This document shows, one piece after another, positions 4,243-29,777 of a DNA stretch of 64,000 nucleotides; the stretch's first letter is position 1; each line of letters opens with the position of its first letter. The position numbers and the translations under genes were made by a program. This DNA comes from an uncultured Chloroflexia bacterium (GTDB lineage: Bacteria > Chloroflexota > Limnocylindria > Limnocylindrales > CSP1-4): NCBI GenBank assembly GCA_963757765.1, contig CAVWSL010000015.1, positions 658,922 to 722,921 of the forward strand, written 5' to 3'. A model generated the notes under the pieces. The model was not told the origin of the DNA, ran no database searches, and saw only the letters and a program-made list of their open reading frames with translations.

Positions 4243-4298
4243 GACCGGCAGCGTACCAGACGCGTCGGTGGCGGCCTCGGCCCGCTATCCTCGCCGCC

Positions 4299-11279: not shown

Positions 11280-11483
11280 CAGCGCGCCGCTCCAGACGGG
11301 AAGGAGGGTGGCTTGCCTGCAGGAAGCAGCGGAAGAGTCCAGCGGACCGTCCTTCTGGTTGGGGCGGCCCTTGGGGTCGCCGGGCCCTGATGGGCTGGGA
11401 TCGTGGTCCCAGCGAGCGCATACTCAGGCGCGCCGCCCAGCTGGCATCCAGCCGTCGTTGGCGCGGTGCCCGAGGAGCGCCCC

Positions 11484-12530: not shown

Positions 12531-12764
12531 CGCACGGACCCCAGCTTGGACCGCCCGACAGTGGTGGGCGCAAAAAGCATCGTCTCTCCCTCTCGCGCCA
12601 ACTGCGACTCCGCCCAGGCGCACCAGCGCCGCGACCCGCCATGCTTCGTCATCCCTTCCCGGTCGATGCCGGGTCCCCCGGTCGGCGGAGGCGGAGGGCG
12701 GCGCGGGCGGACGTTGGCAGCGTGCTGTGGACATCCACGATCATCGGCTCGCACGTGATGCCCA

Positions 12765-13721
12765 TTACTGATGGCGTCTCGACCGGGTCCCGTCGACGGT
12801 CCGCTCCGAACCACCGTCGGACACGCCCGAGGTCCCCACCAGGAGCAGCGCCTGCGACCGGTTCTGCACCCCGAGCTTCCGATAGGCGTTCGCCAGGTGC
12901 GTCTTGGCCGTCTCCGTCGAGATGCCGATGACGGATGCGATGGCGGCTGTCGTCCGACCCGTGGCAGCGATGCGGAGCACCGCGGTCTCCCGCCCTGTCA
13001 GAGGCCCTCCCGCACCGGGCACGAGCCCACGGCCGGCTTCCCGGAGGGCGGTCGGCCCGACCACATCGAGGAGCGCGGACGTGGCCGCCGCACGGGACCG
13101 GACCGCAGCCTTCGTGTATGCCTTGCCCAGCTGGGTACGGACCGTCGCCACCGAGAGCCCGAGGATCGACGCGATCGAGGGGAGCGAGAGGCCCACGCTG
13201 GCGAACGCGAACACCTCGGCCTCACGAAGCGCCAGGCCCCAGGCGCTCGCGGACGCATCCGCGACGCTGCTGACGGCGGCGCGACGCAATAGGCGCGACG
13301 CGGCCGGTCGGAGCTGGGCCAGGAGCCGGATGTCCTCGTCCGAGAAGCCGGTGGCCTCCCGGTAGCTGGCCAGATAGGAACGCTCGTGCGGGAAGTAGAC
13401 TGGCACGCCGACCATGTTCTCGATCCCGAACGGTCGCCAGAAGTGACCATAGTCGATCGTTGGCCGCAGCGATCGGCGGCTGCCGACGTCCGAACGGCGG
13501 CCGGTGATGAGCAGTCCCGTCGAGTCGTGGAGGGCGATCACGGGATGCTGGCGACCTCGCACGCTGGAGGTCCACAGGGGCAGGTCAGCGATCTGTCGCC
13601 CCTCGAGCCCGGACGGCCACGCATCCGTGATGCCTCCTCCTGGGCCGAGGCACGCCATCGAGAGATCGCGTGGCACGAGCGCGCCCGCGACCGTGACCAG
13701 CCTCCTGGCCGCGGCGTCCAT
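12765..13721 (-). CDS. transcriptional regulator with two tandem LuxR-type HTH domains and a GAF-like N-terminal region
   Basis: Two LuxR HTH signatures: LREAEVFAFASVGLSLPSIASILGLSVATVRTQLGKAY and LTGRETAVLRIAATGRTTAAIASVIGISTETAKTHLANAYRKLG. The start is uncertain; upstream in-frame candidates exist up to ~14066. Confidence 0.65.
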   Translation of the reverse strand: MDAAARRLVTVAGALVPRDLSMACLGPGGGITDAWPSGLEGRQIADLPLWTSSVRGRQHPVIALHDSTGLLITGRRSDVGSRRSLRPTIDYGHFWRPFGIENMVGVPVYFPHERSYLASYREATGFSDEDIRLLAQLRPAASRLLRRAAVSSVADASASAWGLALREAEVFAFASVGLSLPSIASILGLSVATVRTQLGKAYTKAAVRSRAAATSALLDVVGPTALREAGRGLVPGAGGPLTGRETAVLRIAATGRTTAAIASVIGISTETAKTHLANAYRKLGVQNRSQALLLVGTSGVSDGGSERTVDGTRSRRHQ

Positions 13722-14031
13722 GGCGGGCGCAGGGGAAGCGTCGAGCTCGCTCACCGCCGCGAGCAGGCGGGCCTCATCCGAGATCGCCCCGTTCCGCACC
13801 CGGGGACCATACGAGGATCGGTGGATGTCGCATAGCCCTCCAGCGACGGATACGTCGATCGGGGGATGCCGCCATACATGGATCGGGGGATGTCCGCCTG
13901 GCCCGCGGGTGGCCCATGGTCCGGGCCGCGGGGTCCGTCGGCGCGGAGACCATCCAGGATCGAGGCGAGCGACGGGACCATCCGGGTGTGATGGCCCCAG
14001 GGAACCCCGGGCGAGTTGGGAGGTCATGGAC

Positions 14032-14652
14032 ATGGGACACATGGCGCGAACGCAGGCTCGTCGCATGTCACGAACCGTCGCGATCGGTGCGGTGCTCGTG
14101 ATGGCGACGGCGGGCAGCGCGATGGCAGAGGCCGATACGGGCGAGCTCCCGGTGGCAGGCTTCACCCACATATCGGTGGTCGACGAGCAGGTCGAGGTGA
14201 GCCTTGCCGATATCTACTCCGGGCACGCGGATGCCGACCGGGTCGAGGTGAGCCTGGCCGATATCTACTCCGGGCACGGGGACGCCGACCGCGCCGACGG
14301 TGGAAGGGCGACTCGCGTCGGCGTGGATCTCGGCATCGCCGGACCGATCGCGGTCGAGACGACGTATACCCTCGAGGCGACCCACCCCGGGTACCGGTCC
14401 GGCTGGCGATACAACGCCGGTCCGGTCATCCTCACTGTGACGACGGGGACGCTCACCCTCGTCGACGACACGTGCAAGATGTTCCATCTCGTCGCGGGTC
14501 ATACCTACATCGGGACGACCGGCCAGGTGCTGAATGCCTTGCTCCTGCCCGAGAAGAACCCGGGTGTGTCGGAGGTCGGCTGGTTCACGACGCGGCTGTA
14601 CCCGGAAGGGGCGGCGGCTCTGGTCCCTGTCGACGCACCCTGTGCGATGTGA
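14032..14652 (+). CDS. secreted cupin-like protein with an internal 17-aa tandem duplication
   Basis: GGGAGG lies 8 nt before the ATG at 14032. Signal peptide MARTQARRMSRTVAIGAVLVMATAGSAMA. Cupin-like C-terminal half (GPVILTVTTGTLTLVDD...HLVAGHTYIG). Confidence 0.6.
   Translation: MGHMARTQARRMSRTVAIGAVLVMATAGSAMAEADTGELPVAGFTHISVVDEQVEVSLADIYSGHADADRVEVSLADIYSGHGDADRADGGRATRVGVDLGIAGPIAVETTYTLEATHPGYRSGWRYNAGPVILTVTTGTLTLVDDTCKMFHLVAGHTYIGTTGQVLNALLLPEKNPGVSEVGWFTTRLYPEGAAALVPVDAPCAM
14191..14292 (+). repeat. 51-bp direct tandem duplication (2 copies) inside the cupin gene
   Basis: Bases 14191-14241 and 14242-14292 differ at only ~5 positions. They encode VEVSLADIYSGHADADR and VEVSLADIYSGHGDADR. 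Confidence 0.75.
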
Positions 14653-15158
14653 CCTGGCGTGATCGGTGCGACCGACTACGCCCCCGATCCCTGGTCTGCA
14701 CTGGACCGTCGGGCGTGCTGGTCGCAGCGGACGCCCTGGAGGGCCTCACGCCGCTCCTCTCGCCCTGTCTCCAGAACGGCGAGGACGATGGCGACGGCGA
14801 CGCCGCCGGATGGTAGGAGATCCACGCCACGGTCCGGTTCATCGTGGGGTCGGCGCTTGTCACGTCGCGGCAGCTCGTCGTCTTCGATCCCGCCCGGAAT
14901 GGCCGGATCGTTCTCATCGCTGCCTCCTCCGAGCAGGTCGAATGGATATCCCGCTGGCCCCGTCTCGCAAGGGGCGGGCCTCCTCGTTTGAGTCGCGGGC
15001 CGCCTCACCCCTCCGCGCCGTCCCAGTCTCGGCCGGGTCCCCGGGCTCGGGGGAGGGCGGCGCCGCGGGCGTGAGTGTCGACGGGGCACTTATCGGCGGC
15101 TTATGCGGACGCTATGCTGCCGCGCACTGGGGGACACCTCGAAGAAGGGAGGCCTTCC

Positions 15159-15704
15159 GTGCGAAGTCGCGTCTGGTCCCTGTCCGCCGCGATCCTGATG
15201 CTGGTCCCGGTGATGGTGCCCGCATCCGTCCTGGCCCAGGCGAGTGCCAGCCTGGCACCGCCGGTCGCTCCCAGCATCGGGGCACCGTCGAGCGCCGGCG
15301 TCGCAACGCTCCCCCCGGACGGCACGTGGATGACCACCGTATCGGCCGACGAGCTGCTCACAGCCGGGGCGCCCGATACCCGGTTCGCGGGGACCGAGAC
15401 CTGGACGCTCGAGGCCGGCGTGGGGACGTGGCGCGACGACTTCCCCGACGGCGGCTTCAGCGAGTGTCGGGCGACCTACGCCGTGGTGGGTGACGTGGTG
15501 AGGTTCACCTATACGAGCGGCACCGACTGCACCGGTGAGGTGGATGACATCCGCTGGACCCTCGACGACGCGGGCCTGCATATCACGCTGGTCGCCACCC
15601 AGTACGGCGAGCCGGGCGAGAGCGCAGCGCTCTGGGGGACGCACCCCTGGACGATGGTCCAGATGTCACCGGCACCTAGCGCGTCCGCATCTGGCGGCTA
15701 CTAG
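15159..15704 (+). CDS. secreted hypothetical protein
   Basis: GTG start with AAGGGAGG upstream. Signal peptide VRSRVWSLSAAILMLVPVMVPASVLAQA. No recognisable domain. Confidence 0.5.
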   Translation: MRSRVWSLSAAILMLVPVMVPASVLAQASASLAPPVAPSIGAPSSAGVATLPPDGTWMTTVSADELLTAGAPDTRFAGTETWTLEAGVGTWRDDFPDGGFSECRATYAVVGDVVRFTYTSGTDCTGEVDDIRWTLDDAGLHITLVATQYGEPGESAALWGTHPWTMVQMSPAPSASASGGY

Positions 15705-15811
15705 CCCGGCACCCTGCGGCATCGAGCCTTCTCAGCGGGCCGCTGGCGCCCTCCGGTGTATCGTCGCCTGAGGATGGCTGGACATGTCTCGCCAGGTCGG
15801 GAGCTGCGCGG

Positions 15812-16108
15812 TTGAGGATATCCGGGTCGGCCGCCCCGAAGCGCGTCGTGGTTCGCACGTACGGCCGGGACAGCCTGCTGGTCTGGGCAAACGTGCTGCT
15901 AGCTCCGGTGATGGCGGCGCTAGGTCTGCGCGTCGGCCTGAGGTCCGAGGAGCAGCTCGCCGCGAGGATGGATGCCGATGCGGCGGTCATGAGGCAGAAG
16001 GGCTACCTCGTGACCTCCGTGCAGACCTTCTCCTTGCCGGTCATCGGGGCGCCGCGCCAGCCCGCCAACTGGTATCGCGTCACCTTCGAGCTAGGCCCGC
16101 CAAGCTAG
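15812..16108 (+). CDS. hypothetical small protein
   Basis: ORF reading ...AARMDADAAVMRQKGYLVTSVQTFSLPVIGAPRQPANWYRVTFELGPPS. Codon-like text but no recognisable domain. Confidence 0.35.
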   Translation: MRISGSAAPKRVVVRTYGRDSLLVWANVLLAPVMAALGLRVGLRSEEQLAARMDADAAVMRQKGYLVTSVQTFSLPVIGAPRQPANWYRVTFELGPPS

Positions 16109-16227
16109 CGAGTAGTGCGGCCCGCTCTGTCGTTCCGTCCCGGTCCCGGCCGGGTCCGAGAGGCACGGCACCTTGCGGCACCGGGCCTCTTCCACAGACT
16201 GACTGCGGCCGATAACGGCAGCCCGGG

Positions 16228-16758
16228 CTACGGGGCGGCACTCGCGGGAGCGGTGCTCGGCGGAGGGCCCATGGGGATGAGCTGCGTGGCCATGGGCTGG
16301 ACGGCGATGCGCGTGCCGGTGACGGTGAGCGGACCGAACTGACCGGGCGGGGTGCCCGCCCCGCCGCCGTACTCGATGCTGAACGTGCCGGACAGCGTGC
16401 CGTCCGCCGTGACCTCGAGCGTGGCACGGACCGTGGCGCTGCCGACCTCGCCGGTCGTCTCGACGCGGTACTGGGTCATGGTCAGCGCGCCGGACGTCGG
16501 TCCGGTCGCCTGCCAGGAGCCGATGCCGGTGCCGCTGCCATCGGTCTGGATGTAGGTCCCGTCGGCATGGAAGATGGCCGTGGTCGGGGCCGTGCCCGGA
16601 CCGGTGCCGACATCCAGCAGCCAGGCACCCACGATCGGGTTCCCGGTGATGGGCATGGCGCTGGCGCCCTGGGCCAGCGTGGCCGAGGCCGAGCCCGCCG
16701 CGAGCAACGTGATCGCCAGGATCGGACCCGCGAGAACGGAGATGGATCGACGCTTCAT
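16228..16758 (-). CDS. secreted hypothetical protein
   Basis: Start at MKRRSISVLAGPILAITLLAAGSASA (signal peptide). Gly/Thr-rich beta-type sequence follows. Confidence 0.55.
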   Translation of the reverse strand: MKRRSISVLAGPILAITLLAAGSASATLAQGASAMPITGNPIVGAWLLDVGTGPGTAPTTAIFHADGTYIQTDGSGTGIGSWQATGPTSGALTMTQYRVETTGEVGSATVRATLEVTADGTLSGTFSIEYGGGAGTPPGQFGPLTVTGTRIAVQPMATQLIPMGPPPSTAPASAAP

Positions 16759-17463
16759 GCAGGGACCCCTCGTCGCTGGCGCCGCAGGATCGGCTCGCCG
16801 CCGACCCGGCGCGGGTCGCGGCGAGGTCTGGCCCGCGGTCCCGCCCGCCGGTCGCGGGAGCATACGCGCCACGGACCCTCCGCGAGGGTCCGTTGTGAAC
16901 ACTCGTGTCCGTCGACCCTTGTCGGCTTTCGAGTTGGCCTGGGCGCTGGATGGCGCTGGCCCCGGTGCCGCCCAGAACTACCCAGGAGCGCCGCCTGGCA
17001 TCGGGACACGGGCGCAGCGTCGATCGGGCGGCGTGGGCCGGATCTGACGGGCTGGGGAATCGAGTCGCTGGCAATCAGCGGACTCTGCCGACAGTGCCGG
17101 CTCCAGCGAAGCGGCCTCTCTCGATGCCTTACGAAAGCTCCCGCAGCGAGCGTTGCAGGTTGAGGAGATCCTTGCGGCTGCTTGCTGCCTCGTATCGGAC
17201 CCACAGCTCGCGAGCCGCCGGCGTGTCCCCGAGGGCGGAGATGCCGGCCGCGACCCCCCCTCGGTCTGTGCTCGCCATCATCGGCGGAAGACGGCGACCC
17301 AGGACCGCCGGTGGGGTGCCCAGGGCCAGCTCAGCGTCCCGCGCCCACCGACGCCGCAGGGTGAATCCCAGCCCGTGGCATGGCCGCGCTCGCGGAGTGC
17401 TTGTCCGCGAGGGCGGGCCCACCAAGGGTGAGCCCGCCCGGGTGCTCGATCGGGTTCCGCGCG

Positions 17464-17964
17464 CTACGCAGGGCTGCCGCCGAGCGCGGGGCAGATCACC
17501 GCGGCGAACGACGTCGTGAGGCCGGGTGTGAACTTGATCACGTTGCTGCCGTTGTCGAAGCCGCTGGGGTCGGAGTAGATGGTCAGTCCCGCTTGGTGGA
17601 TGACCAGCATCCCGTTCGCGTCGCGAGCATGCCAGGCTTGCCCGACGACCTTCAGCGTCCCGTCCACCGCGTACGTGAAGTTGATGGCATCGCGCTCCGT
17701 CAAGGCGTAGGTCGTGTCCAGGTTCGTGTGCACCAGGGCGACCTCCCTGTGCACCCGGTACTGGCCGTCACTGAACGTGGTCACCTGGTCCGTGCCCGAG
17801 AAGGCGATCTGATAGTTGAAGTCGCAGAGGGTCCCGACGGGGAAGGTGACGGCGCCCGAGAAGGGCACCGTCGTCATGGTCGGCTGCGCCGCCGATGCCG
17901 CCGGGACGGCCAGCGCGGTTGCCAGCGCGGCGAGCGCGAACACGGGCACAAGTCTCTTGAACAT
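17464..17964 (-). CDS. secreted hypothetical protein
   Basis: Start at MFKRLVPVFALAALATALAVPAASA, with GGAGG 8 nt upstream. An alternative in-frame start at 18189 (MRSIRTSLALAGTMTAFEIPAAAHA) also carries a GGAGG RBS. Confidence 0.55.
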   Translation of the reverse strand: MFKRLVPVFALAALATALAVPAASAAQPTMTTVPFSGAVTFPVGTLCDFNYQIAFSGTDQVTTFSDGQYRVHREVALVHTNLDTTYALTERDAINFTYAVDGTLKVVGQAWHARDANGMLVIHQAGLTIYSDPSGFDNGSNVIKFTPGLTTSFAAVICPALGGSPA

Positions 17965-18458
17965 GGTGGTGCCTCCGGGGACTCGGGTTGGTGGCTTCCG
18001 GCGTGGGGATCGGGTGACTGCCGGAGCGCCGATGTCGCAAAGGCGGGACGGCGGGTCGGGGGTGGCGGCGCTCGTTCCTGACAACCGTCGCGGCGCTTGT
18101 GCCGCTGGGCTCTGGGCGTGGGCGGCGGCCGGGATCTCAAAGGCGGTCATGGTGCCCGCGAGGGCGAGGCTGGTCCTGATGGAGCGCATGAGGAACCTCC
18201 TGGTGTGACCGTGACGGAATGTCGTGGGCATGGTCTGGGTGCTGCCGGGTCGGCGGTGATGGATGGGCCTCCGATGCGGGTGCGGGGCATGGCTTCGAGG
18301 GTGCGCTCCGACGGAGCGAGCGGAGAAGGAGGCAGGGCTTCTGGATGCGGCTCGAGTCATTGCCAGACGACGGTCGCCGCACTTGATCGAGGTCAGGATC
18401 GGTGCCCGCCGCTGGATCGACGCCGGACCCCGATCAGAGGACCCGGCCAGAGTGGGCA

Positions 18459-19859
18459 CTAGAGGACGACCATCCGGATCCGGTCGTTGCCGGCATCGAC
18501 GATGTACAGGACACCGTCGTGGACGGCGACCCCGTTGGGCTCGCTCAGTCGGGCGTCGAGCGCCGGGCCGCAGTCGCCGGAGAAGCCCGCCTTGGAACCC
18601 GTGCCAGCAAGGGTCGTGATGGACCCGCCGGTGTCGACCCTGCGTACCGTCTGGTTGTCAGAGGAGAAATAGACGTTGCCAGCCGCATCGACGGCGATGC
18701 CATTGGATCGCCCGATGGCCGCATCGATCGCCGGTCCACCGTCGCCAGCATGGCCCGATAGGCCGTTCCCGGCGAACGTCGTGATGATCCCGGTCCTGTC
18801 GACCTTCCGGATCCGATGGTTGTTCGGGTCGGGCAGATACACGTTCCCCGCGAGGTCGACCGCCAGTGCGACCGGGTCCGAGCCGCCGCTCACCTGAGCC
18901 AATGTCGCCTGACCACCGTCTCCGGAGAAGCCAGGGAGGCCGTTGCCGGCGAAAGGACGGACGATGCCGGCCGTATCGACCTTGTGCCAGCCCTGGGTCC
19001 AGTCGTCGAAATAGATCTCGCCTGTGGGTCCGAACGCCAGGTTGCTCGCGCTGATCTTCGCGCTGAGGGCCGGTCCGGCCTCGCCATCCGAACCATCGAC
19101 ACCCGTGCCGACCACAGGGACAGAGGTTCCGGTGGGATCGATCCTCCAGATCCGGGCTGAGAAGTAGTCGGTGACGTAGAGGATGCCCTGGGTATCGAAC
19201 GCGACGCCCGTCGGAGCCTTGAACGTGGTGGTGGACGTGGGTCCGAGGGTGGCCGTCGTGATGATGCCGTCGGGACCGATCCGGCGGACCCCGTGAGACA
19301 CGCCACGGCCGAAATAGCCGGCCGAGTTGCCGACGTAGATCGCACCGGTCGGGTCGATCGCGATGCCATACGGTGCCGACAGCGTGGCAGACAGTGCGGG
19401 GCCGTCATCCCCGGTAATGCCATCGACGCCCGTGCCCGCGACGGTCGCGATATCGCCGCTCTTGAGCGTCGCCCCGGCCGGGCAACCGGTTGGCAGGAGC
19501 GCGACGGCCGGGAGGGTGTCGCGGCCGTCGTCGGGATCGTTCCGACTGCTGAGCCGGGATCCGACGATGGCACCGCCGGCCGCCAGGGCCAAGGCCAGGA
19601 GCGCCACCAGGAGCAAGGCGAGGACCGCCCGCATGGGTGCGGCCATCGGGGATCGATGAGCGATGAGGGTCGTGGGGAACAACCCTTCGGGGTCGAGCCA
19701 CCAAGCTCGGCGACGCGTGCGAGCGGTCCGATAGAGCGTGGCGTTGAGCAGACCGGCCGGCTCCTGGGGAGGCGCGTCCGTCTCGAACCACTCGGCCAGC
19801 ACCGTCGAGGTCTCCTCCAGGCGCATCGTGTCCTTGTTCGGGTCGGGGCGTGCGTTCAT
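18459..19859 (-). CDS. anti-sigma-factor-like membrane protein with an extracytoplasmic NHL-repeat beta-propeller domain
   Basis: Its ATG overlaps the sigma-factor stop as ATGA at 19856-19859. One TM helix (MRAVLALLLVALLALALAAGG) is followed by repeated NHL-type motifs (YGIAIDPTGAIYVG, GVAFDTQGILYVTD, NHRIRKVD, GIAVDAAGNVYFS). Confidence 0.7.
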   Translation of the reverse strand: MNARPDPNKDTMRLEETSTVLAEWFETDAPPQEPAGLLNATLYRTARTRRRAWWLDPEGLFPTTLIAHRSPMAAPMRAVLALLLVALLALALAAGGAIVGSRLSSRNDPDDGRDTLPAVALLPTGCPAGATLKSGDIATVAGTGVDGITGDDGPALSATLSAPYGIAIDPTGAIYVGNSAGYFGRGVSHGVRRIGPDGIITTATLGPTSTTTFKAPTGVAFDTQGILYVTDYFSARIWRIDPTGTSVPVVGTGVDGSDGEAGPALSAKISASNLAFGPTGEIYFDDWTQGWHKVDTAGIVRPFAGNGLPGFSGDGGQATLAQVSGGSDPVALAVDLAGNVYLPDPNNHRIRKVDRTGIITTFAGNGLSGHAGDGGPAIDAAIGRSNGIAVDAAGNVYFSSDNQTVRRVDTGGSITTLAGTGSKAGFSGDCGPALDARLSEPNGVAVHDGVLYIVDAGNDRIRMVVL

Positions 19860-20411
19860 GCCGGCCGTCCTTCGGGAAGTCGTGGAGGGGATTCGTCGGC
19901 AGCGAGGGCGGCGCGCATCGCGACCGTCCCACGGTGGATGCGCGACTTGACCGTGCCGATGGGGATACGCAGGGCATCCGCGATCTCGGGCACCGAGTAG
20001 CCCAGGTAGTGGTGCATGACGAGCGCGGTCCGCTGCTGGACATCGAGTCTGCGGAAGCCGCGCTCCAGTTCGTCTCGCAGTGCGTGCTGCGGACCGGGGT
20101 CCGCCGAGATGTCCGTGATGGGCCGGACGCGGCCCTCCACGAGGCTCCGCCGTCTCCCCCGGGATGCTTCGCGATAGCATTCCCGGACGAGCAGCCGATG
20201 CAGCCAGGGTTCGAAGCGATCGGGATCGGCGCAGGGACGCCATGTCCCGCCAGGCGGCGACGAGCGCCTCCTGGGTCGCGTCCTCCGCGGCTTCCGAGTC
20301 CCGCAGGATGAGCCAGGCCGTGGCATAGAGCCGGCGGATCCCGAGGCGTGCCAGTTCAGAGAACGCCTCGTGGTCACCCGCCATCGCCCGTTCGACCAGG
20401 TCCCGCGGCAT
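19856..20411 (-). CDS. ECF (sigma-70 family) RNA polymerase sigma factor, paralog 1; frame breaks near 20228-20231 (extra base in cgcc)
   Basis: Region 2 (MPRDLVERAMAGDHEAF...DATQEALVAAWRDMASLR) lies in one frame. The rest of region 2 and region 4 (DPDRFEPWLHRLLV...LDVQQRTALVMHHYLGYSVPEIADALRIPIGTVKSRIHRG) lie in the adjacent frame. Deleting one c restores colinearity with paralog 2 at 24703-25252. Confidence 0.75.
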
Positions 20412-20599
20412 CGGGTCTCCGCTTAGTGGTACGGCACATCCGGCCCCACTCACAAGGTATGGGGAGTGTCGAGGCCCAATCGTTCCCGGTCTGTTCCACG
20501 GAGTCATCACTGCCGGACAGCGACCCGATCATCCCATTCGGTCCCGTCCCTGACCCCTGGCGGTCGCATGCGACAATCAGGACGCCAGACGCCGCCCGA

Positions 20600-20700
20600 C
20601 CGGTGGGGTACCCACGTTCTCGAAGCGTCCATCCCCGATGACGCCGCTGGTAGCGTGTGCGCACGGCCGGGTTTCGGCGATCTTCCCGGGGCCCGCGCGC
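20600..20700. promoter_or_regulatory. conserved upstream element A: near-palindrome gtggggtacccac, then 35 nt on gacgccgctggtagcgtg and cggccgggtttc
   Basis: Near-identical block with the same internal spacing recurs at 25394-25490 upstream of the second ECF sigma gene. It lies between the sigma gene and the divergent cadD-like gene. Confidence 0.45.
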
Positions 20701-20763
20701 GCGAGGGCCGCACCGCGGCTCGCGGACCGGCCTCCGTCCGTGGCGCGACGCTACGCTCCAGTG

Positions 20764-21330
20764 ATGGACCTGCTCTCCACGGCCGGCATCGCCGTCGGCT
20801 TGTTCGTCGCCACGAACCTCGACGATGCGTTCCTGCTCGTCGGCTGGTTCGCGCGCGGGCGACCATCGGCCCGCCAGGTCGTGGTCGGGCAGTATCTCGG
20901 CATCGGGCTGCTCACCGTCGTCAGCGTCATCCTCGGGGCGGCGGTCGTAGCGGTGGCATCGGGGTGGGTCCGATACCTGGGACTCCTACCACTCGCGATC
21001 GGGGTGCGCGGGCTCGTGTCGATCGCTCGGGGCGACGACGAGGACGAGTCGGAGGCGCCGGCCGCGAAGGGTATCGCCGCGGTCGCCACCGTGACCATCG
21101 CGAGCGGGGCCGACAACGTGAGCGTCTACACCCCGGTCCTCGCCACGTTCGACGCGGGCGCGCTCGCGGTCACCGCCCTCGTGTTCGCGATCATGACCGG
21201 CCTCTGGTGTCTGGGTGCCCGCGCGCTGGTCGATCATCCGCGATACGGCGCGCCCCTGCGACACCACGGTCCGCTCATCGAGTCGCTGGCACTGATGGTG
21301 GTCGGGCTGGCCGTGCTCCTCGGCGTCTAG
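20764..21330 (+). CDS. CadD-family (cadmium-resistance transporter-like) membrane protein
   Basis: MDLLSTAGIAVGLFVATNLDDAFLLVGWFA..., 5-6 TM segments. Length and pattern fit the CadD family. Confidence 0.65.
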   Translation: MDLLSTAGIAVGLFVATNLDDAFLLVGWFARGRPSARQVVVGQYLGIGLLTVVSVILGAAVVAVASGWVRYLGLLPLAIGVRGLVSIARGDDEDESEAPAAKGIAAVATVTIASGADNVSVYTPVLATFDAGALAVTALVFAIMTGLWCLGARALVDHPRYGAPLRHHGPLIESLALMVVGLAVLLGV

Positions 21331-21432
21331 CCGAGCGTCGGTGAGCCTGCGGGGGATGACCACGAGACGACGGATGGAGACCGAACCGCCCCCGACTCGC
21401 GGCCGGGGCCGTTCGCGAAGAGGCGGGATGGC

Positions 21433-21789
21433 CTATCCGGCGGCGGCGTTCTCAGCCTCCGGTGCCGTCTCCACCTGCCCCTTGGAGCGTGGCCTCTGGC
21501 GCGGAGCCGGTGTCTCGATGGGCTCGCCCTCCCCGACCAGGGAGGCAGCCAGGGTGTGCTCGTGCGCGGGCGCCTCGGGAGCCGCGCCAGGCTCGCGCGC
21601 GGCCGGGGACTCGACCGGTTCGGTCGGCCCTTCCGCCTGGCGCGCCACGGCGCCCTTGCGGAGCGCGTTCGTGTACTGGCGCCAGTGGGTGTGGCACATC
21701 CGGCCAAGCTGGTCCTCGGCGCTCGGCTGGGTGGGGAACTCGTTCTCCGGGCGCCTCGTGACCCCCGATGGCGAAGCGGGTCGAGCCAA
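21433..21789 (-). CDS. hypothetical acidic low-complexity protein (very uncertain)
   Basis: ORF containing MCHTHWRQYTNALRKGAVARQAEGPTEPVESPAAREPG.... It lies in an ~890-bp stretch (21330-22217) with no confident gene. Confidence 0.2.
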   Translation of the reverse strand: MARPASPSGVTRRPENEFPTQPSAEDQLGRMCHTHWRQYTNALRKGAVARQAEGPTEPVESPAAREPGAAPEAPAHEHTLAASLVGEGEPIETPAPRQRPRSKGQVETAPEAENAAAG

Positions 21790-22216
21790 CGCAGCGGCGC
21801 ATCGGGATGGTCGTGTCCTGCGTAGTCATGGCGTGAGTGTCCTTCGTGGTCTACAGGCCGAACGAGGCGGCGAGTGCCTCGCTCTCGGTGGGTCCCGCGT
21901 CCATCGCGGCACCGAGCGCCGCGTGCATCGCTGCGTTGAATTGCTGGGCACCTGAGCCCATCGAGCGTCGGGTGCTCGACCCGCATCCAGGCCTCGACTG
22001 GCAGCAGCATTGGCCGTGGTCGTGGCGCTGTGCTGGCTGGGGCCGCCGTCGTGATCGGCGTAGAGGCAACGGCGATCGCCGCCTCGATGCTCGTCGCGAT
22101 GGGCACTGTCGCCGACCATCACATGAGCGGGTGGTACATTCCATCGAGTCCGCCGCACGGTCCGTGCAGCCGCCCACCCGTCGTCGCTCACGTCTGACCA
22201 AGAGGAACGAGCGCCT

Positions 22217-22657
22217 GTGAAGAAGCGATCGATCGGCCTCGCGATCGGCATCCCGATGATCGTCGTCCTCCTCAGCGCATCCGTGGTGAGTGCGCGAGCG
22301 GTCGTCCCCGGGGCCAGCATCGACGGCGTGCACATCGGCCAGGGCAAGGCCTCGGTCAAGCGCGTCCTCGGCCCGCCGCCCCACACGCAGAAGGGACCGC
22401 CTGGATCGGACACCGTGCGCTGGGACTACAAGGCGCACAACTCCCTCACGGTGCTCCTCGTGCAGGGCAGGGTGACGAGGGTGTTCGTCACGACCATCCC
22501 CGGGCGGGGCAGGGTGTTCGACCACACGACGAAGGGGATCGGACTGCTGTCGAAGATGTCCGCGGTGAGGAAGGCATACCCCGGTCACTGCGAGCCGCCG
22601 GTCCCATCCATGGGGATACCCCCGTGTGCCACTGGGACACCGCCACGACGCGCATGA
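22217..22657 (+). CDS. secreted hypothetical protein
   Basis: GTG start with AGAGGAA RBS. Signal peptide MKKRSIGLAIGIPMIVVLLSASVVSARA. Confidence 0.55.
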   Translation: MKKRSIGLAIGIPMIVVLLSASVVSARAVVPGASIDGVHIGQGKASVKRVLGPPPHTQKGPPGSDTVRWDYKAHNSLTVLLVQGRVTRVFVTTIPGRGRVFDHTTKGIGLLSKMSAVRKAYPGHCEPPVPSMGIPPCATGTPPRRA

Positions 22658-22678
22658 CGTTCACGGCCTCCGGTCGCT

Positions 22679-23151
22679 ATGGCAGCGGCTGGAATGCACC
22701 GGTCGAAACGATCCAACTGCAGTCGACCCTCCCCCACGGCTGAGACGCCACTGGAAGAACCGGGCGCGGCCGCCCGCCACGCGATCGGGCGGCTCGACAG
22801 GCACGGCCGTGTGGCCAGCGTGAGCCCGAGAGGGCGACCAGTGGTCACACCGTCGAGTCATGCGACACGCCACGCGCGCACACAGGGCGCCCCCACGAGG
22901 GTAGCCTCGTGCCATGGCTGGGCACCCGCACGGTCCCTCGCTGCGCCTGGACGGGTGTCGGTCATCACGAGGCTCTTGGAGGCGGGCAGCACTCCGCGTG
23001 CGGCGGCCGCCTTGCGCGGGATCGACCGGGCCACCCGCTTTCGCCGGCTGAGCGATCCACGGCCTTGGCGTGGCTGGTCGGGACCGCTGATGCCGCACTG
23101 GCCTTCGCGGACCTGGTGACCCGTGCTGAGGCACGCTGCGCGGCGCCATGA
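22679..23151 (+). other. ORF fragments with HTH-like text (possible degraded transposase or excisionase)
   Basis: Frame 2 reads RVSVITRLLEAGSTPRAAAALRGIDRATRFRRLSD. An overlapping frame reads LSPAERSTALAWLVGTADAALAFADLV. Neither is a complete gene, and the region lies just upstream of the HNH endonuclease. Confidence 0.2.
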
Positions 23152-23182
23152 CGACGCGGGTGTACGAAAGGAGCCGAGACGG

Positions 23183-23591
23183 ATGTCCTGCCGCCGGGCG
23201 ACCCGGGACCAACATGTAGGGCGCCGCGTCTTCTCGGGCGGACACGACGATCCGCCATCCCTGCCCGGGCTGCCTGCGCGTGACATCCCGTTCGGGTCGC
23301 TGCCTCGCCTGTGGCGGCGGGAGCACGACGCATCGCGGGTACGTGGCGCCCTGGGAGCGGCCACGGGCGCATCAGTTGCTGCGCCACCCCACGGGCGAGT
23401 GGAGGCGGACCGCGGACGGAGATCGCACGCGCCCAGCCACGGACGTCGACCACATCCTGCCCAAGGGCCGCGGCGGCAGCGATGGCTCCGAAAACCTCCA
23501 GGCCTTGTGCGCTCGCCACCACAGGCTGAAGTCCTCGGCGGTCGACCGAAGGTGGGGCCTGCACAGTCGAGCTACCTCGTTGGGATGCTGA
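23183..23591 (+). CDS. HNH endonuclease (small zinc-finger HNH family); N-terminus appears frame-shifted near 23225-23262
   Basis: AAGGAG RBS lies 9 nt before the ATG at 23183. The frame carrying CPGCLRVTSRSGRCLACGG...DVDHILPKGRGGSDGSENLQALCARHHRLKS is open only from 23218, while the ATG and first ~15 codons sit in the adjacent frame. Confidence 0.6.
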
Positions 23592-23748
23592 CCCCCCCCG
23601 CATCGCGGTACCGCGTGGGTGGACCCGAGTCGACGACGGTCCAGGCTCGCGCAGCGATCGCGAGCGCGACGATGCGCGGGCCTTCCTGGTCGCCGGGTTA
23701 AGGGGGAGACTCGTCTCCCCGCGCGATCCATCGTGGGCGGCGGCCCGG

Positions 23749-24706
23749 TCACGGTGTCCCAGCCCCAGATGGACCTGATGCTGGCGACTGACTGGGCGCT
23801 GGCAGGTCGATGCGGATGGAGGCGAGCATGGCCTCCATCGCCGCCAGGTCCTGCCCGCTGGTCTCGGGCCTGTGCCAAGTGTTCATCATGAAGCGGGTGC
23901 CGTCGATGTCCAGGATGTACAGCACGCTGAGCTGGCCGCTGACCTTGCGGGGAGCGACGAGCGGCTCGGGGACATTGAGCGCCGAATCGCCGAGGTCCAG
24001 GAAGTCCCGGTAGACCCCTTGGTCGCAGGTCGCCACATCGAGGTCGGCCGGCACCGACAGCTCGACCCGCTTGGCTGGCAGGCCGCCGAAGACCACGTCG
24101 GTGGGTTCGGAGCCCTCGCGTCCGATCTGCCCCGCGAACGCGTTCGCGAGGTCCTCGGTCGTGGGTCCGACGGGCGGATCGGAGAGTGTGTCCGCCCAAT
24201 GACAGGGATCGGTGAAGACGTTCGCCGGCTGCCACCAGCCGAAGGCGATCTCGCCGACCCCGCCGAGAGTCTCGAAGTCCCTACGCCCATCGACATCGGC
24301 CCAAAGGACACCGTAGTACTGCTCCCATCCATCAGGGACGGTCACCGTCCATCGGGCGGACCCGAGAGGGCCCTGGTATGCGCCGGGTGCGAGAGGCCCG
24401 GGTTCTCCGAACGGACCCGCTGACGGGCTGGGCGACGGGCTCTCCAGGATGGTCGGGGGTACCGGGGCCGGTGATCCTCGGCACGAGGCCACCGACGACG
24501 GCAAGGGCACTTATGGCTGCCACCACGGCAGCGATCCGGATGGGCGTGGTCATGGTGTTCAACCTCCACGCAGGCCATCTGGCGCGCCGCTGTGGGGTGG
24601 CCGGGACTTGGTCGAGCACGGAGTCCAGGACGCGGTCCGGGAGCGCCGTGACGCCCTCCTCCAGCCACGACTCGACGATGCGGATCACGTCGCGATCGGT
24701 GCTCAC
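23749..24706 (-). CDS. anti-sigma factor (cytoplasmic N-domain, one TM, extracytoplasmic domain), paralog-2 module; frame breaks at the GGGGG run 24455-24459
   Basis: ATGA overlap with the sigma-factor stop at 24703-24706. N-terminal part MSTDRDVIRIVESWLEEGVTALPDRVLD... is followed by a TM helix. The reading then continues in the adjacent frame (PTILESPSPSPSAGPF...WTVTVPDGWEQYYG...). Removing one C from the minus-sense CCCCC run joins the two frames. Confidence 0.55.
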
Positions 24707-25252
24707 GTGGCGACCTCCCGCTGCACCGTGCGCGCGTCGGCCTCGAGGGCCGCGCGCAGCCCGCGCATCGCACGCAACAGACGCGATCGGACCGTTCCGA
24801 CGGGGACACCCAGCGCTTCCGCGATCTCGTCGAGGGGCAGGTCGAGGTAGTGGTGCATCACCACCACCGCGCGATGGTCGAGGGACAGGCGCCGGAAGCC
24901 GCGCTCGAGCTGGTCGCGATCGACGACCGTGCTCGTGCCATTCGTCCTGGACGGCTCCTCAGCCGGCACGAGTCGGATGTTGGGCGACCACTGGCGCGCC
25001 CGGCGTCCCTCGGCGTAGCAGGCGCGCACGAGGAGCCGGTACGACCAGGCGTCGAAACGCGCCGGGTCGCGGAGCTGCGGAAGGTCCCGCCAGATGGCGA
25101 GCAGCGCCTGCTGCGTCGCGTCCTCGGCAAGCTCGATGTCGCGCAGGATCCTGTGCGCCACCCTTGTGGAGTCGGTCGCCTACGGCGATGGCGAGGCTCG
25201 CGAAGGCCTCCTCATCGCCTCGTTGCGCCCGTCCGATCAAGTCGGCATCCAC
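24703..25252 (-). CDS. ECF sigma factor, paralog 2; frame breaks near 25160-25165 (ccc/ggg run)
   Basis: GTG start reading (M)DADLIGRAQRGDEEAFASLAIAVGDRLH in one frame. VAHRILRDIELAEDATQQALLAIWRD...region 4 (LDHRAVVVMHHYLDLPLDEIAEALGVPVGTVRSRL) lies in the adjacent frame. Closely similar to paralog 1 throughout. Confidence 0.75.
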
Positions 25253-25393
25253 GCTGCTTCCGCCTTTGTGACGCCCGGTGGGTCCGTGCGTTCACAGGGT
25301 ATGGGGGTCACCTACGAGGGCGCGGCACCATCTTCGTGCGCGCCCGTCGCCCCCGATGGATGGGACGTCGCGATCGTGCCCGGGACGACATCG

Positions 25394-25490
25394 CCGGTGG
25401 GTACCCACATCGCCGAACGCAAGCCACGCCGTGACGCCGCTGGTAGCGTGCGTGCGCGGCCGGGTTTCACGACTTTTCTCGGCCGCGCGC
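25394..25490. promoter_or_regulatory. conserved upstream element B: perfect 12-bp palindrome gtgggtacccac, then 35 nt on gacgccgctggtagcgtg and cggccgggtttc
   Basis: Paralogous copy of element A, lying 140-240 nt upstream of the ECF sigma paralog 2 start. Confidence 0.45.
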
Positions 25491-25945
25491 TGGGACTCGG
25501 CCTTTTCCTGGCCGCCCCGGTACTCACTGGTCGTGAGGCTGATCATGGTCAGGATCGGTTCGCGGGTCCGCGGGACGGAACGCGCCGCCCGTTCGTTGTT
25601 GGTGTGTGGAACGGATGCTTCGGCGCGTGACGCATGACCTGGGGGAGGAGCTGCAAGGTCCGGCCACGAAGTCTCGCGCCGTCGGCGCGGGCGGGGAGGC
25701 CCCTCGATGGTCCCATCGTCTGCGGGCACGTCGATGCTCAGGGACCAACGATCATGAGGCTTCCGATGCGCTGACCGTGCCCTTCAGACACGATCGTGCC
25801 GCCCCTCCAATGGCCAGTTGGCCGTGCGCAGACACCGCACCGGTCTCGCTCGCACATGCGCTGGCCCCGAAAGCCCTGGGGTACTTTCGGGCCATGACTG
25901 CAGTACCATCCAACGGCGCTGCCTGCGTCCCAGGAGTGTCCACCG

Positions 25946-27925
25946 ATGGACGTGCCCAGCAGTGCGGAGGGAAAGATCGTGCCGTCACCCCTCAGGTTCC
26001 TCGCGACCCTGCTTGCCGTTGTCGTCAGTTGTGCCCTGGTCGGGGCATTGGTCGCATTGATGGTCGCGGCGGGGAGTCCTGCTTCGGGGATCCGACCCAG
26101 GAACGATACGGCTGCCAACGTCGGAACTTCGCCGACCCCGGTCCTGCCGACGCCGACCCCGGTCCTGCCGACGCCGACCCCGGTCCTGCCGACGCCGACC
26201 CCGGTCCTGCCGACGCCGACCCCGGTCCTGCCGACGCCGACCCCGGTCCTGCCGACGCCGACCCCGGTCCTGCCGACGCCGACCCCGGTCCTGCCGACGC
26301 CGACCCCGGTCCTGCCGACGCCGACCCCGGTCCTGCCGACGCCGACCCCGGTCCTGCCGACGCCGAAGACTCCTGCGATCGCACAACTGGCCGCGAACGG
26401 TGACACCTCTGTCGCTGCAGACCCCCAGGGTCCACAAGGCCCCAAAGGGGATACAGGTCCGGCTGGACCAACCGGACCCCAGGGTGTCCCGGGTGACACC
26501 GGACCCGCCGGACCCCAGGGCGACATCGGGCTCACCGGACCGCAGGGTCCGAAGGGCGACACGGGAGCGGTTGGCCCAGTCGGACCCCAGGGTCCGAAGG
26601 GAGATCCTGGTGTGACCGGCGCTCAGGGCCTCAAGGGCGATATCGGGCTTACCGGGCCGCAAGGTCCGAAGGGAGATCCTGGTGTGACCGGCGCTCAGGG
26701 CCTCAAGGGCGATATGGGGCTTACCGGGCCGCAGGGTCCGAAGGGCGACACGGGAGCGGTTGGCCAGGTCGGACCGCAGGGTACGAGGGGCGTGATCGGG
26801 CTGACCGGGCCGCAGGGTCCGAAGGGCGACACGGGAGCGGTTGGCCAGGTCGGACCCCAGGGTCCGAAGGGCGACACCGGGGCGACTGGCATGACCGGCG
26901 CCCAGGGTCCCAAGGGCGACACGGGGGCGACCGGCATGACCGGCGCCCAGGGTCTCAAGGGCGACACGGGGGCGACCGGGCCGCAGGGTCCCCCCGGCCC
27001 GCCAGGGCTTGCCGGCAATGGGTCGGCGCTGCGGGCCTTCATCGGGCCGATCGGGCCGAAGGGTGACACTGGTCCTCGCGGCCCCATGGGCGCGCGTGGT
27101 CTGACGGGGCCGCGCGGTCCCAAGGGCGACCAGGGACTCCGCGGCTTTACGGGCCCCCAAGGTCCGAAGGGTGATATCGGGCTGCGAGGTTTCACCGGCG
27201 CAACGGGGCCGATAGGGCCCCGCGGTCTGACCGGACTGACCGGCCCTCGAGGTCTGACCGGCGCTACCGGCCTGACCGGCCCCCAAGGCTCGATCGGCCT
27301 TCAGGGGCCCAAGGGTGACACTGGCGACAACGGGCAACGGGGTCTGACGGGCGCCACAGGGAACACCGGTCCGCAGGGCCCCAGGGGCGACACCGGGAAC
27401 ACGGGTCCCCAGGGTCCCAAGGGTGACCCCGGCGCGGACGGCACCCCGGGTCCGAAGGGCATCGCAGGAAACACGGGTCCCCAGGGTCCCAAAGGTGACC
27501 CCGGCGCGGACGGCGCCCCGGGTCCGAAGGGCATCGCAGGAAACACGGGTCCCCAGGGTCCCCAGGGTCCCCAGGGTCCCAAGGGTGATCCCGGCGCGGA
27601 CGGCGCCCCGGGTCCGAAGGGCAACGCCGGGGCCGACGGGAAGGACGGCAAGGACGGCAAGAATGGAGCCGACGGGGTGAGCGGCTGGGATCGGGTGACC
27701 GGCGGCACGGCCACGGTCGGGACTTCGGTTGAGGTCGTTACGGCCAACTGCCCGGCCGGCAGGGTCCTTGGAGGAGGCTTCGATACGTCCGGCGCCAGTG
27801 ACCCCAAGGACATCGTCATCGTTCGCAGCAGTCCCAGCGACAACAACACGTGGAGGGTGGAGGCGGTCAGCCGCGGCAACAGTTTCTCCGTTACCGCCTA
27901 CGCCATCTGCGCCGTCGTCAACTGA
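25946..27925 (+). CDS. collagen-like triple-helix repeat protein: N-terminal TM/signal anchor, (T/S)PTPVLP x11 linker, ~400 aa Gly-X-Y, small C-terminal globular domain
   Basis: MDVPSS...[25 protein letters not shown]. About 130 consecutive G-X-Y triplets ([19 protein letters not shown]...). C-terminal ~90 aa are non-collagenous ([37 protein letters not shown]...AYAICAVVN). Confidence 0.85.
26129..26361 (+). repeat. 21-bp perfect tandem repeat (gccgaccccggtcctgccgac) x11, in frame, encoding TPTPVLP
   Basis: Read directly from sequence. The last perfect unit ends at 26361. Confidence 0.85.
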
Positions 27926-28000: not shown

Positions 28001-29005
28001 ATGGTTGGGCCACGGGCCGTTAGCATGCCCGCGATGCAGATCGCGCCCGGCAGCTTCGATTTCCTCCAGGAACGGCGCCGCCTCCTGGCCATCCTGCTCA
28101 TCAGCCTGGCGGGCACCGCTGTCGTCGTCTTCCTGGTGGCACGCGGCGAGCTGGCAGGCGCGGACGCTCGTGCCTACTGGGGCGGTGTCCGTGTCTGGCT
28201 CGATGGCGGCAGCCCGATCACGCCACCCGCGCCATATCTGCCGTACGTGTACGCACCGTGGTCCGTGCCCATCTTCATGCCCTGGGCGCTGCTGCCATGG
28301 GATGTGGCCTGGTTCGTCTGGCGGGGCATCAACGTCCTGCTGCTGCTCTGGTCAGCGTCCTGGGCGTACAAGCAGCACCCGCTGGCCACCGCGATCCTGC
28401 TATGCGTCCTCGCGGCACCCATCGCGGCGACCCTGGACACCGGCAATATCACCCTGCTGTGCGCGCTCGGCATCTGGGCCGCGCAATTCGTGGGTCCCCG
28501 CCTGGGTGGTGGCCTCTGGGCGCTCGCGACGGTGCTGAAGTGGTTCCCGGCACCACTCTGGCTCATCCTACCGGCCCGCGCGCGACGCTGGGGACTCATC
28601 TGGATGGGACTGGCGGCCATCCTGTCACTCGCGACGTGGCCTCAGACCGTCACCCAGATCCAGGCCGCTGTCGCGTTCCCGCGGCCATTCCGGTTGGACT
28701 ACCTGCTGTTGCTGTGGGCTTGCGTGCCATGGGTCTGGGCCCGACCCCGACTGCTGGAACCGAACGACTGGCGGCCGTTGATGCGAGAGACCCAGGCAGC
28801 CATCCGTCGCGAGTGGGCTGGCATCCGCGCCGCAGATCGCCCGCTCCATGCTGCCGTGGCCTGGACCGTGCTGCATACCCGCTCGTCACTGGGCCTGTCG
28901 AACCCGTCGACGACCGAAGTGGTGGCGCCCGGCCAAGATCCGCCGCCAGCCGTGGCGCCGCTGGACGCCGAGCCGGAAGCCGCCGCGCGGACACCCGGCA
29001 GCTGA
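28001..29005 (+). CDS. polytopic membrane protein, DUF2029 / GT87-like candidate glycosyltransferase
   Basis: At least 7 predicted TM helices and a pattern rich in W, P and aromatic residues (YAPWSVPIFMPWALLPWDVAWFVWRG), reminiscent of lipid-linked-sugar-dependent GT-C/GT87 proteins. Lies directly downstream of the collagen-like gene. Confidence 0.6.
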   Translation: MVGPRAVSMPAMQIAPGSFDFLQERRRLLAILLISLAGTAVVVFLVARGELAGADARAYWGGVRVWLDGGSPITPPAPYLPYVYAPWSVPIFMPWALLPWDVAWFVWRGINVLLLLWSASWAYKQHPLATAILLCVLAAPIAATLDTGNITLLCALGIWAAQFVGPRLGGGLWALATVLKWFPAPLWLILPARARRWGLIWMGLAAILSLATWPQTVTQIQAAVAFPRPFRLDYLLLLWACVPWVWARPRLLEPNDWRPLMRETQAAIRREWAGIRAADRPLHAAVAWTVLHTRSSLGLSNPSTTEVVAPGQDPPPAVAPLDAEPEAAARTPGS

Positions 29006-29432: not shown

Positions 29433-29777
29433 ATGAGGAACGAACCGGCGGCACCCGAGACGATGGGGGTCACCGTGAGGTCGCTGACAGCGGTTGACCT
29501 AGGCCCGGAGATCGAGGGCATGGCGGGGCGCCAGCTTCGGATGCGGATGGTGACCATCGAACCTGGCGGTGTCTTCGGCCCGATCCACGACCATGTCGAT
29601 CGACCAGGCACCGTCTACATCCTCCAAGGAACGATCACCGACCATCGGAACGGGATCGCCACGGACTATGGGCCGGGACCGGGCTGGCCCGAGGACCGGG
29701 ACACGACACACTGGCTTGAGAACAGGGGGACCACGCCCGCGGTGGAGATCTCGGTCGATATCGTCAGGCTCGAATGA
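29433..29777 (+). CDS. cupin domain protein
   Basis: GGAGGAGG RBS. Cupin-like core (RMRMVTIEPGGVFGPIHDHVDRPGTVYILQG). Confidence 0.8.
   Translation: MRNEPAAPETMGVTVRSLTAVDLGPEIEGMAGRQLRMRMVTIEPGGVFGPIHDHVDRPGTVYILQGTITDHRNGIATDYGPGPGWPEDRDTTHWLENRGTTPAVEISVDIVRLE

Follow-up and report, generated by a model that had tools for sequence, protein, structure and literature searches.

A probable trimeric collagen-like surface fibre with a predicted resistin-like head in an uncultured Chloroflexia bacterium

Bacterial collagen 'lollipops' such as Scl, BclA, Lcl and Pcl are already well known, and a gene of this kind is not in itself new. The streptococcal Scl1 and Scl2 are surface-exposed homotrimeric collagen lollipops whose repeat number varies and whose globular domain trimerises; this head (V domain) lies at the N-terminus, and an LPXTG anchor at the C-terminus. 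BclA of Bacillus combines a stalk of Thr-rich triplets, polymorphic in length, with a C-terminal trimeric nucleating head, and is glycosylated (PMC8968730). Lcl of Legionella pneumophila consists of an N-terminal membrane-binding element, a collagen stalk of variable repeat number and a C-terminal trimeric head; it appears as a lollipop in electron microscopy, its head probably nucleates folding and binds ligand, and C-terminal trimerisation domains are known to initiate collagen folding (PMC11162425). Here we describe a collagen-like gene at positions 25946 to 27925, on the plus strand, of a 64,000-nt stretch (the window, to which all coordinates and strands refer) of contig CAVWSL010000015.1 from an uncultured soil bacterium of the Chloroflexia. 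Its product is best explained as a homotrimeric collagen-like 'lollipop' surface fibre in type-II membrane orientation, nucleated by its head, a reading to which we assign a probability of roughly 0.62. Confidence is high for the anatomy, moderate for the mechanism of the trimeric head, and low to moderate for an adhesive function.

Lcl resembles the fibre protein in its N-terminal element, its stalk and the position of its head. However, Lcl is a substrate of the type II secretion system and re-binds the outer membrane by an amphipathic helix, and its head has another fold and binds glycosaminoglycans, whereas the fibre has a hydrophobic, probably transmembrane helix with a Pro/Thr linker behind it, its stalk is interrupted and much longer, and its head is predicted to be resistin-like. 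BclA shares with the fibre the Thr-rich triplets, the C-terminal head and the length polymorphism, and Scl1/Scl2 share the general lollipop plan but have the opposite polarity, the head of the fibre protein being C-terminal. A first-pass annotation of the window had pointed to the exosporium glycoproteins of the BclA type and to Scl-type adhesins, and membership of either group is not supported. The scores of the fibre protein stay below the NCBIfam equivalog cut-offs (SclB 286.3 vs 325, SclA 205.9 vs 400, adhesin_Lcl 255.5 vs 500), the Scl and Lcl matches are confined to the Gly-X-Y region (positions 56–283 of 431 in the Lcl profile), and the protein contains no LPXTG-like motif. As to BclA, both the C1q/TNF jelly-roll head and the exosporium-targeting or sporulation context are missing, the N-terminus being a 25-residue hydrophobic helix and the neighbouring genes encoding GT87, Nei, Lhr and sigma factors. 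Among animal proteins, the membrane-associated collagens whose triple helices are interrupted (MACITs; types XIII, XVII, XXIII and XXV) and the collagenous scavenger receptors are oriented as type II, with the transmembrane helix at the N-terminus and an extracellular triple helix that is interrupted (PMC8968730), and the fibre would work in a like manner. This is an analogy only: homology does not extend beyond Gly-X-Y, the fibre is bacterial and carries another head, and no hydroxyproline machinery was seen. For the head itself, the nearest counterparts are resistin/RELM and the Cys/His-rich domain (CHRD) of PCSK9, from which the fibre differs in that its stalk is collagen and not a coiled coil and in that its head has one conserved Cys pair against the three disulfides per module described for PCSK9 (PMC9113161), and the Apicomplexan APCbeta domain, which is structurally akin to the predicted head (TgPLP1, 5ouo).

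The protein is composed, from N- to C-terminus, of a short tail, a hydrophobic helix, a Pro/Thr linker, a first collagen segment (COL1), a break, a second collagen segment (COL2) and the head. The corresponding features are:

25946..27925, plus strand: coding sequence of the collagen-like fibre protein (ATG start, 659 aa, 62 kDa, pI 9.0)
25885..25945, plus strand: conserved upstream block, candidate promoter and 5' untranslated region, recognised by homology with the orthologous locus L001
25946..26071, plus strand: N-terminal tail and hydrophobic helix, recognised by hydropathy
26072..26428, plus strand: Pro/Thr-rich linker, aa 43–161, recognised by composition
26130..26366, plus strand: perfect tandem array, 21 bp x 11.3, with the unit CGCCGACCCCGGTCCTGCCGA, in frame and encoding (T)PTPVLP heptads
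26429..27022, plus strand: COL1, 66 Gly-X-Y triplets, aa 162–359 (Tandem Repeats Finder, Pfam)
27023..27043, plus strand: interruption SALRAFI, aa 360–366, with a register shift of one residue
27044..27673, plus strand: COL2, 70 triplets up to aa 576
27674..27922, plus strand: C-terminal head, aa 577–659, 83 aa, predicted six-stranded beta-sandwich

The reading frame is far beyond chance because it stays open across 1980 nt at 72% G+C, the G+C content at third codon positions exceeds that at second positions (GC3 0.78 vs GC2 0.66), and at either end of the gene there is a recognisable module without repeats, conserved among related genomes. Collagen (PF01391) was the sole family recognised by the Pfam scan of the protein; the long Gly-X-Y sequence with Pro-rich X and Y positions reached 223.4 bits (E 1.9e-67), where 27.2 is the cut-off. 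The arrangement of N-terminal anchor, linker, Gly-X-Y repeats and small C-terminal domain which the first-pass annotation had proposed is therefore borne out, with the N-terminus being either an anchor or a signal. An AGGAG at 25932–25936 lies 9 nt ahead of the ATG at 25946, and a possible alternative start is GTG 25952, which aligns with the ATG of the L001 orthologue. Homology with L001 sets in at about 25835, 111 nt before the ATG, and from about 25885 the two loci are near-identical; this makes the block 25885..25945 a candidate promoter. A sigma-70 promoter scan around the gene gave no promoter-like site, and a terminator scan found two terminator-like sites only, both upstream in the non-conserved spacer (25489 and 25578). 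The approximately 580 nt between the start of the neighbouring sigma factor gene and the conserved block (25253–25835) show no codon-position periodicity of G+C and are not conserved in L001. An Rfam scan of the window at gathering thresholds gave a tRNA-Lys only, and exact-sequence queries of a contig index, made for the fibre protein, for GT87 and for an 'MSGW...' version of the head alone, returned no record.

Four open reading frames (ORFs) of 450, 274, 192 and 166 aa run antisense to the gene, as had been noticed before. All four are read as spurious, since anchor helix, linker and conserved head are found in the plus-strand frame alone:

25985..27337, minus strand: longest antisense ORF, 450 aa
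25738–26562, minus strand: antisense ORF
26695–27195, minus strand: antisense ORF
27301–27879, minus strand: antisense ORF

When species-representative genomes were searched for the head protein, two genomic loci only came up. L001 (CAWJKF010000011.1) belongs to a Chloroflexia metagenome-assembled genome (MAG) whose conserved genes are 83–93% identical in DNA to the window, and it encodes an orthologue of 631 aa with the same six-part layout and 133 triplets. On a metagenomic contig, L006, the hydrophobic helix, a Pro/Ser/Thr linker, COL1, the break, COL2 and the head are present with 80 triplets in all, and a further contig end, L005, retains the head, that is the 3' end of the gene, only. 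The full architecture is thus known from the window, L001 and L006, and together with L005 these make up the four collagen-positive loci. Codon counts against L001 indicate that the gene is under purifying selection: the 45 aligned codons of aa 1–47, which cover the tail, the helix and the first five linker residues, contain 0 non-synonymous and 16 synonymous differences and are the most constrained part of the protein, and the 81 aligned codons of the head contain 18 non-synonymous and 22 synonymous ones (76% identity).

The Gly-X-Y register enters the head by two triplets, giving 72 triplets (aa 367–582) for the second segment and a total of 138 (66 + 72); the long repeat region seen at first pass is real, its count of about 130 too low. 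COL1 contains internal duplications of 72, 81 and 45 bp. The break occurs at the same place in L001 (LALRSFI) and L006 (AAAWAQLL), is preceded by GPPG(PPG) in all three full versions, and represents a probable hinge. The whole region is predicted to form a triple helix, for which a length of about 118 nm is calculated (138 triplets x 3 x 0.286 nm). It contains 18 KGD motifs, Pro occupies 51/138 of the X positions (37%) and Thr 38/138 of the Y positions, and Thr and Gln together account for 46% of Y. This residue usage agrees with the published norms of bacterial, hydroxyproline-free collagens (PMC8968730).

The head contains two Cys residues, Cys602 and Cys655. The C-terminal region had been proposed to be a folded domain, and the AF2 model agrees with this (pLDDT 95.5, pTM 0.84, six strands). 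A TNF/C1q-like jelly roll had been suggested as its fold; the model instead predicts a beta-sandwich of the resistin, PCSK9 C-terminal module and APCbeta type. Its structural neighbours include the PCSK9 C-terminal domain (4k8r_B; score 8.3, 23% identity over 65 residues), resistin (1rgx; 6.1), the APCbeta domain of Toxoplasma PLP1 (5ouo; 6.1) and RELM-beta (1rh7; 6.0), and the predicted head, six-stranded and some 80 residues in size, can be superposed on the resistin, PCSK9 and APCbeta structures. C1q/TNF entries did not occur among the top 60 structural neighbours, and a head of this kind was rejected on fold.

At the level of sequence the connection is faint. A profile search of PDB sequences with the head placed TgPLP1 first, weakly (E 0.097), the Pfam scan of the head gave no hit at E<=10, resistin and PCSK9 families included, and NCBIfam gave none at 0.1. 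Identity to the resistin and PCSK9 structures is 15–24%, and common ancestry with them is not established. A stronger proposal, in which the head would be genuinely homologous to the resistin/PCSK9-CHRD/APCbeta module and occur in prokaryotes in the interchangeable formats of one copy per chain or three tandem copies, is tentative and in our judgement improbable.

The head belongs to a large bacterial family. Against 1.84 billion cluster representatives, phmmer found 586 matches at E<=1e-3 and 15 at E<=1e-10; the representatives stand for clusters at 50% identity. Among the 152 relatives kept from the top listed matches, 32 have collagen, and 30 of these 32 possess exactly one head copy, 0–7 residues from the C-terminus, while 58 have three tandem head copies and no collagen. 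Comparison of the one-copy and three-copy classes by hhalign (probability 99.1%, E 4.8e-19) marks them as clearly homologous in sequence. In alignment A1 (domain numbering) C26, G35, W60 and C79 are invariant and G33 and G34 nearly so; the family signature reads 'GVSGW...CPxG..vGGG...W...YAICA', and the ORF of the window matches the family profile with E 2.6e-29. About 15 of 120 listed family members, for example P0286, P0287 and P0310, carry a precomputed match to PF27479.1. A curated family for the head may therefore already exist in PF27479; a literature search for PF27479 or for bacterial collagen with a resistin-like head brought up nothing relevant.

Structural homology to the resistin homotrimer has been stated for the M1–M3 modules of PCSK9 (PMC9113161), and APCbeta is built of three six-stranded, disulfide-linked repeats of about 80 residues which form a pseudo-threefold prism (PMC5943054). 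The simplest reading of these structures and of the two classes is that three module copies make one compact three-fold body, supplied either by three copies in one chain or by one copy from each of three collagen chains. In analogy to BclA and Lcl, but with another fold, the head of the window protein would then act as a knob for trimerisation and registration, for which we have moderate confidence.

The cassette of collagen and head appears to be joined to different N-terminal parts across phyla, to judge from L002, a Methyloligellaceae MAG (44.5% G+C). There the same head follows a short collagen of 31 triplets (1935–2858), and the N-terminal part comprises a signal peptide of the cleavable type and a domain of some 100 residues. 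Many database 'proteins' of 79–95 aa consist of the head only and start at the Val of GVSGW. In L085 (ena:ERZ25039555 contig_999) a gene for collagen and head at 4256–5441 is spread over three frames and called as a product of 146 aa, P0071; frameshifted collagen genes thus occur in related long-read assemblies. An earlier warning that automated annotation could be misled at this locus is supported by the family, whose gene calls in public data are often head-only or split by frameshifts.

In the Pro/Thr linker 38 Pro and 30 Ser or Thr residues were counted among 119, and it is read as an extended wall-spanning spacer and a candidate region for O-glycosylation. Its 21-bp array was recovered as first described: Tandem Repeats Finder reports 100% matches without indels and 11 unit starts, and the encoded protein (aa 62–138) is SPTPVLP followed by 10 exact TPTPVLP. 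The unit has no other occurrence in the window, and the array is absent from L001 and L006. Linkers of the orthologues are similar in length and different in sequence, that of L006 being rich in Pro, Ser and Thr. Since the L001 linker has imperfect APTPTAV-type units instead, the linker evolves by repeat turnover, and the array of the window is a recent expansion specific to its lineage. The array is in frame and therefore alters the length of the linker; it does not switch the gene on and off.

The tail (aa 1–17, with K10 and R17) is followed by a hydrophobic stretch of 25 residues (aa 18–42; Kyte-Doolittle 19-mer mean up to 2.87). It is probably a type-II signal-anchor, because it is that long, lies in the most constrained region of the protein and has a spacer of some 120 residues behind it. 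The head is likely to be extracytoplasmic, given that ordinary cleavable signal peptides are found in relatives with collagen and head and that the Cys pair is invariant. We infer export topology, trimer formation by the fibre protein, folding direction, glycosylation and adhesive function, and the mechanism proposed runs as follows. The chain would be exported unfolded, with the N-terminal helix staying in the cytoplasmic membrane as signal-anchor, and the roughly 120 Pro/Thr-rich residues, including the 11 heptads, would form an extended spacer through the wall. Outside the cell, three 83-aa heads would each fold as a disulfide-stapled six-stranded beta-sandwich and pack on a three-fold axis like three resistin heads or the three C-terminal modules of PCSK9. 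The heads would set the chains in register and nucleate a triple helix, whose zipping would start at the C-terminal side and proceed towards the membrane through COL2 (72 triplets), the hinge and COL1 (66), and the GPPGPP clamp before the break may help to re-nucleate COL1. As hydroxyproline is lacking, stability of the helix would come from the KGD motifs as ion pairs, from Pro at X and from Thr and Gln at Y. The head at the distal tip would be the likely ligand-binding or adhesive end.

Several points weigh against this mechanism. The three-fold packing is carried over from the model of a natural three-copy homologue with 27% identity; the structural neighbours bind proteins or lipids and have no common ligand class, which leaves a binding role of the head hypothetical; net charge is similar on either side of the helix, so that the positive-inside rule is not decisive; and the exact copy number of the array is that of the assembly of one genome. 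Furthermore, signal peptidase could cut after VAAG(42); the product would then be a released and not an anchored fibre.

The last point leads to the rival that survives best. The N-terminal segment could be a cleaved Sec signal peptide, and the product an untethered fibre, released or self-assembling outside the cell as part of a matrix, a sheath or an S-layer-associated structure. Small residues after the hydrophobic stretch form candidate sites for signal peptidase I in the window (VAAG|S) and in L006 (VSAA|N), and cleavable signal peptides are the ordinary case in most relatives with collagen and head. However, a hydrophobic core of 25 residues is long for a signal peptide, the constraint on aa 1–47 is the strongest in the protein, the Pro/Thr spacer directly behind makes best sense as a tether, and no other wall-attachment module (LPXTG, SLH or LysM) was found. 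We regard release as possible but improbable, and keep to the membrane-anchored fibre.

The gene downstream bears on a further proposal, which is an elaboration of the anchored fibre and not an alternative to it:

28001..29005, plus strand: GT87 (DUF2029) GT-C-type membrane glycosyltransferase (PF09594)

Its ORF begins 75 nt downstream of the fibre gene, with the conserved start probably at ATG 28025 according to the alignment of the boundary. The match to PF09594 (44.8 bits against a cut-off of 25, E 1.7e-11) places the product in the family, and its homologues in Chloroflexi/Chloroflexota are named 'DUF2029 domain-containing protein' or glycosyltransferase family 87. Enzymes of the GT87 family (PimE-type) use lipid-linked donors at the outer leaflet. 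Fibre and GT87 could therefore be a dedicated two-gene module in which the linker, or the Y positions rich in Thr, would receive O-glycans from the GT-C enzyme at the outer face of the membrane. In all four collagen-positive loci (window, L001, L005, L006) the GT87 gene follows directly 3' of the collagen gene, with a gap of about 75–100 nt and no predicted terminator, the donors of the family would suit such a role, and collagen proteins of the BclA type are glycosylated (PMC8968730). On the other hand, an upstream collagen gene was found in 2/80 metagenomic GT87 loci only (L005 and L006), and close relatives (L003, L004, L083, L084 and a JGI contig; GT87 identity 79–91%) keep the order GT87-Nei-Lhr without collagen, with another upstream gene and a cyanophycin cluster before GT87. 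Between collagen-positive and collagen-negative loci, conservation starts only at the GT87 start. From this we conclude that the GT87 gene is a core gene with a role independent of the fibre, beside which the collagen gene is inserted as an accessory one. Conserved co-occurrence, which would speak for functional coupling, was not found; the dedicated module is doubtful, and a glycosylation dedicated to the fibre, although possible, is unsupported. The first-pass annotation was thus right about a glycosyltransferase-like membrane protein downstream, and its link to a glycosylated fibre is weak.

In L003, L083 and L084 the cluster, at about 1500–5400, comprises cyanophycin synthetase and cyanophycinase, together with a secreted protein of 250 aa of no known family upstream of GT87. 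Between GT87 and Nei the window contains a small cupin-domain gene (29433–29777, plus strand) that is absent from the syntenic L001.

On the other side of the fibre gene lie two further features:

24703..25252, minus strand: extracytoplasmic function (ECF) sigma factor gene (Sigma70_r2/r4), apparently frameshifted near 25163
11262–25835: variable island of 14.5 kb, ending 111 nt before the ATG of the collagen gene

The island has no counterpart in L001, which has a different 7 kb there, and contains genes for a gluconolactonase-like protein, a LuxR/sigma-r4 regulator, a CadD-like transporter and an HNH endonuclease ORF (23280–23591) besides the sigma genes. The N-terminal 30 aa of the sigma factor (MDADLIGRAQRGDEEAFASL...) are encoded at 25252–25163 and the remainder at 25164–24706 in another frame; joining the frames lifts the Sigma70_r2 score from 32.8 to 39.5 bits, and near 25163 a run of GGG has an extra base, which means either that the gene is a pseudogene or that the sequence bears an indel error. 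Control of the fibre gene by this sigma factor and its anti-sigma partner was suggested by their divergent orientation, with about 690 nt between the genes, and that position is confirmed. The regulatory link is very unlikely, however: homology with L001 reaches only as far as 111 nt ahead of the ATG and the sigma genes lie in the stretch absent there, searches for a sigma homologue in L001 and L006 found none, the sigma gene is in two frames, and inspection of the conserved upstream block by eye showed no motif of the GGAAC..CGT type.

The putative anti-sigma ORF (24332–24706, minus strand) comprises an N-terminal part, a helix and an Arg-rich tail, and overlaps by 178 nt, in another frame, an ORF of 253 aa (23749–24510, minus strand); the GC3 phase switches at about 24330–24400, and 23749–24706 could be a single anti-sigma gene with an extracytoplasmic domain and a second frameshift. 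Further away an ORF of 683 aa (18459–20510, minus strand) shows a match to sigma-70 region 2 and beta-propeller repeats of the NHL/teneurin type. A paralogue comparison hits it in two frames (20411–20229 and 20227–19943), which suggests a further frameshift or an unusual sigma-NHL fusion.

A lipid anchor of the fibre protein, with VVSC(29) as lipobox and attachment at Cys29 after cleavage by signal peptidase II, is still less probable. V-V-S-C fits a relaxed lipobox behind an n-region with K10 and R17 and a hydrophobic stretch of 10 residues, and it is conserved in L001, but hydrophobicity runs on for 13 residues past Cys29. The reading was rejected chiefly because the L006 orthologue, with the same kind of hydrophobic segment, has no Cys in it at all.

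An assembly artefact or pseudogene, against which the first-pass annotation had cautioned, is hardly credible: the gene is highly repetitive, and frameshifts are apparent in the nearby sigma genes and in collagen genes of related long-read assemblies, but its frame is uninterrupted along all 1980 nt and has functional modules at either end, the same architecture at similar length (133 triplets in L001) recurs in independent assemblies, purifying selection is indicated, and other long ORFs of the window (1667 and 1519 aa) are intact too. Equally remote, and rejected, is a tail fibre of prophage or phage origin that has collagen repeats, as all PHROG matches are confined to Gly-X-Y (the head alone and the three-copy homologue give none), no relative occurs in 2.9 million viral contigs nor any BFVD match at E<=1e-3, the protein has an N-terminal hydrophobic segment, no phage genes occur among the ORFs scanned at about 11.4–29.8 kb, and the flanks are the chromosomal core genes Nei and Lhr.

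It is unusual for bacteria that a probable type-II anchor is combined with a Pro/Thr spacer and a stalk of 138 triplets with an interruption, and the combination is found here in Chloroflexota. A full-text literature search on collagen-like proteins in that phylum listed incidental co-mentions only, judged from titles and abstracts. If the head is truly homologous to the eukaryotic modules, the gene would be a bacterial counterpart of the type-II membrane collagens in which a resistin-type trimer nucleates folding. The head defines a large, almost unannotated bacterial domain family of at least 586 clusters at 50% identity, the abundance of which is under-counted as public gene calls are often truncated to the head or split. 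Under the same condition, this family would be the ancestral pool of the resistin head of vertebrates and of the C-terminal domain of PCSK9. The equivalence of one copy in three chains and three copies in one chain would provide a testable rule for how small domains register collagen chains and, since recombinant collagens require a compact tag for trimerisation, may be of use in their design.

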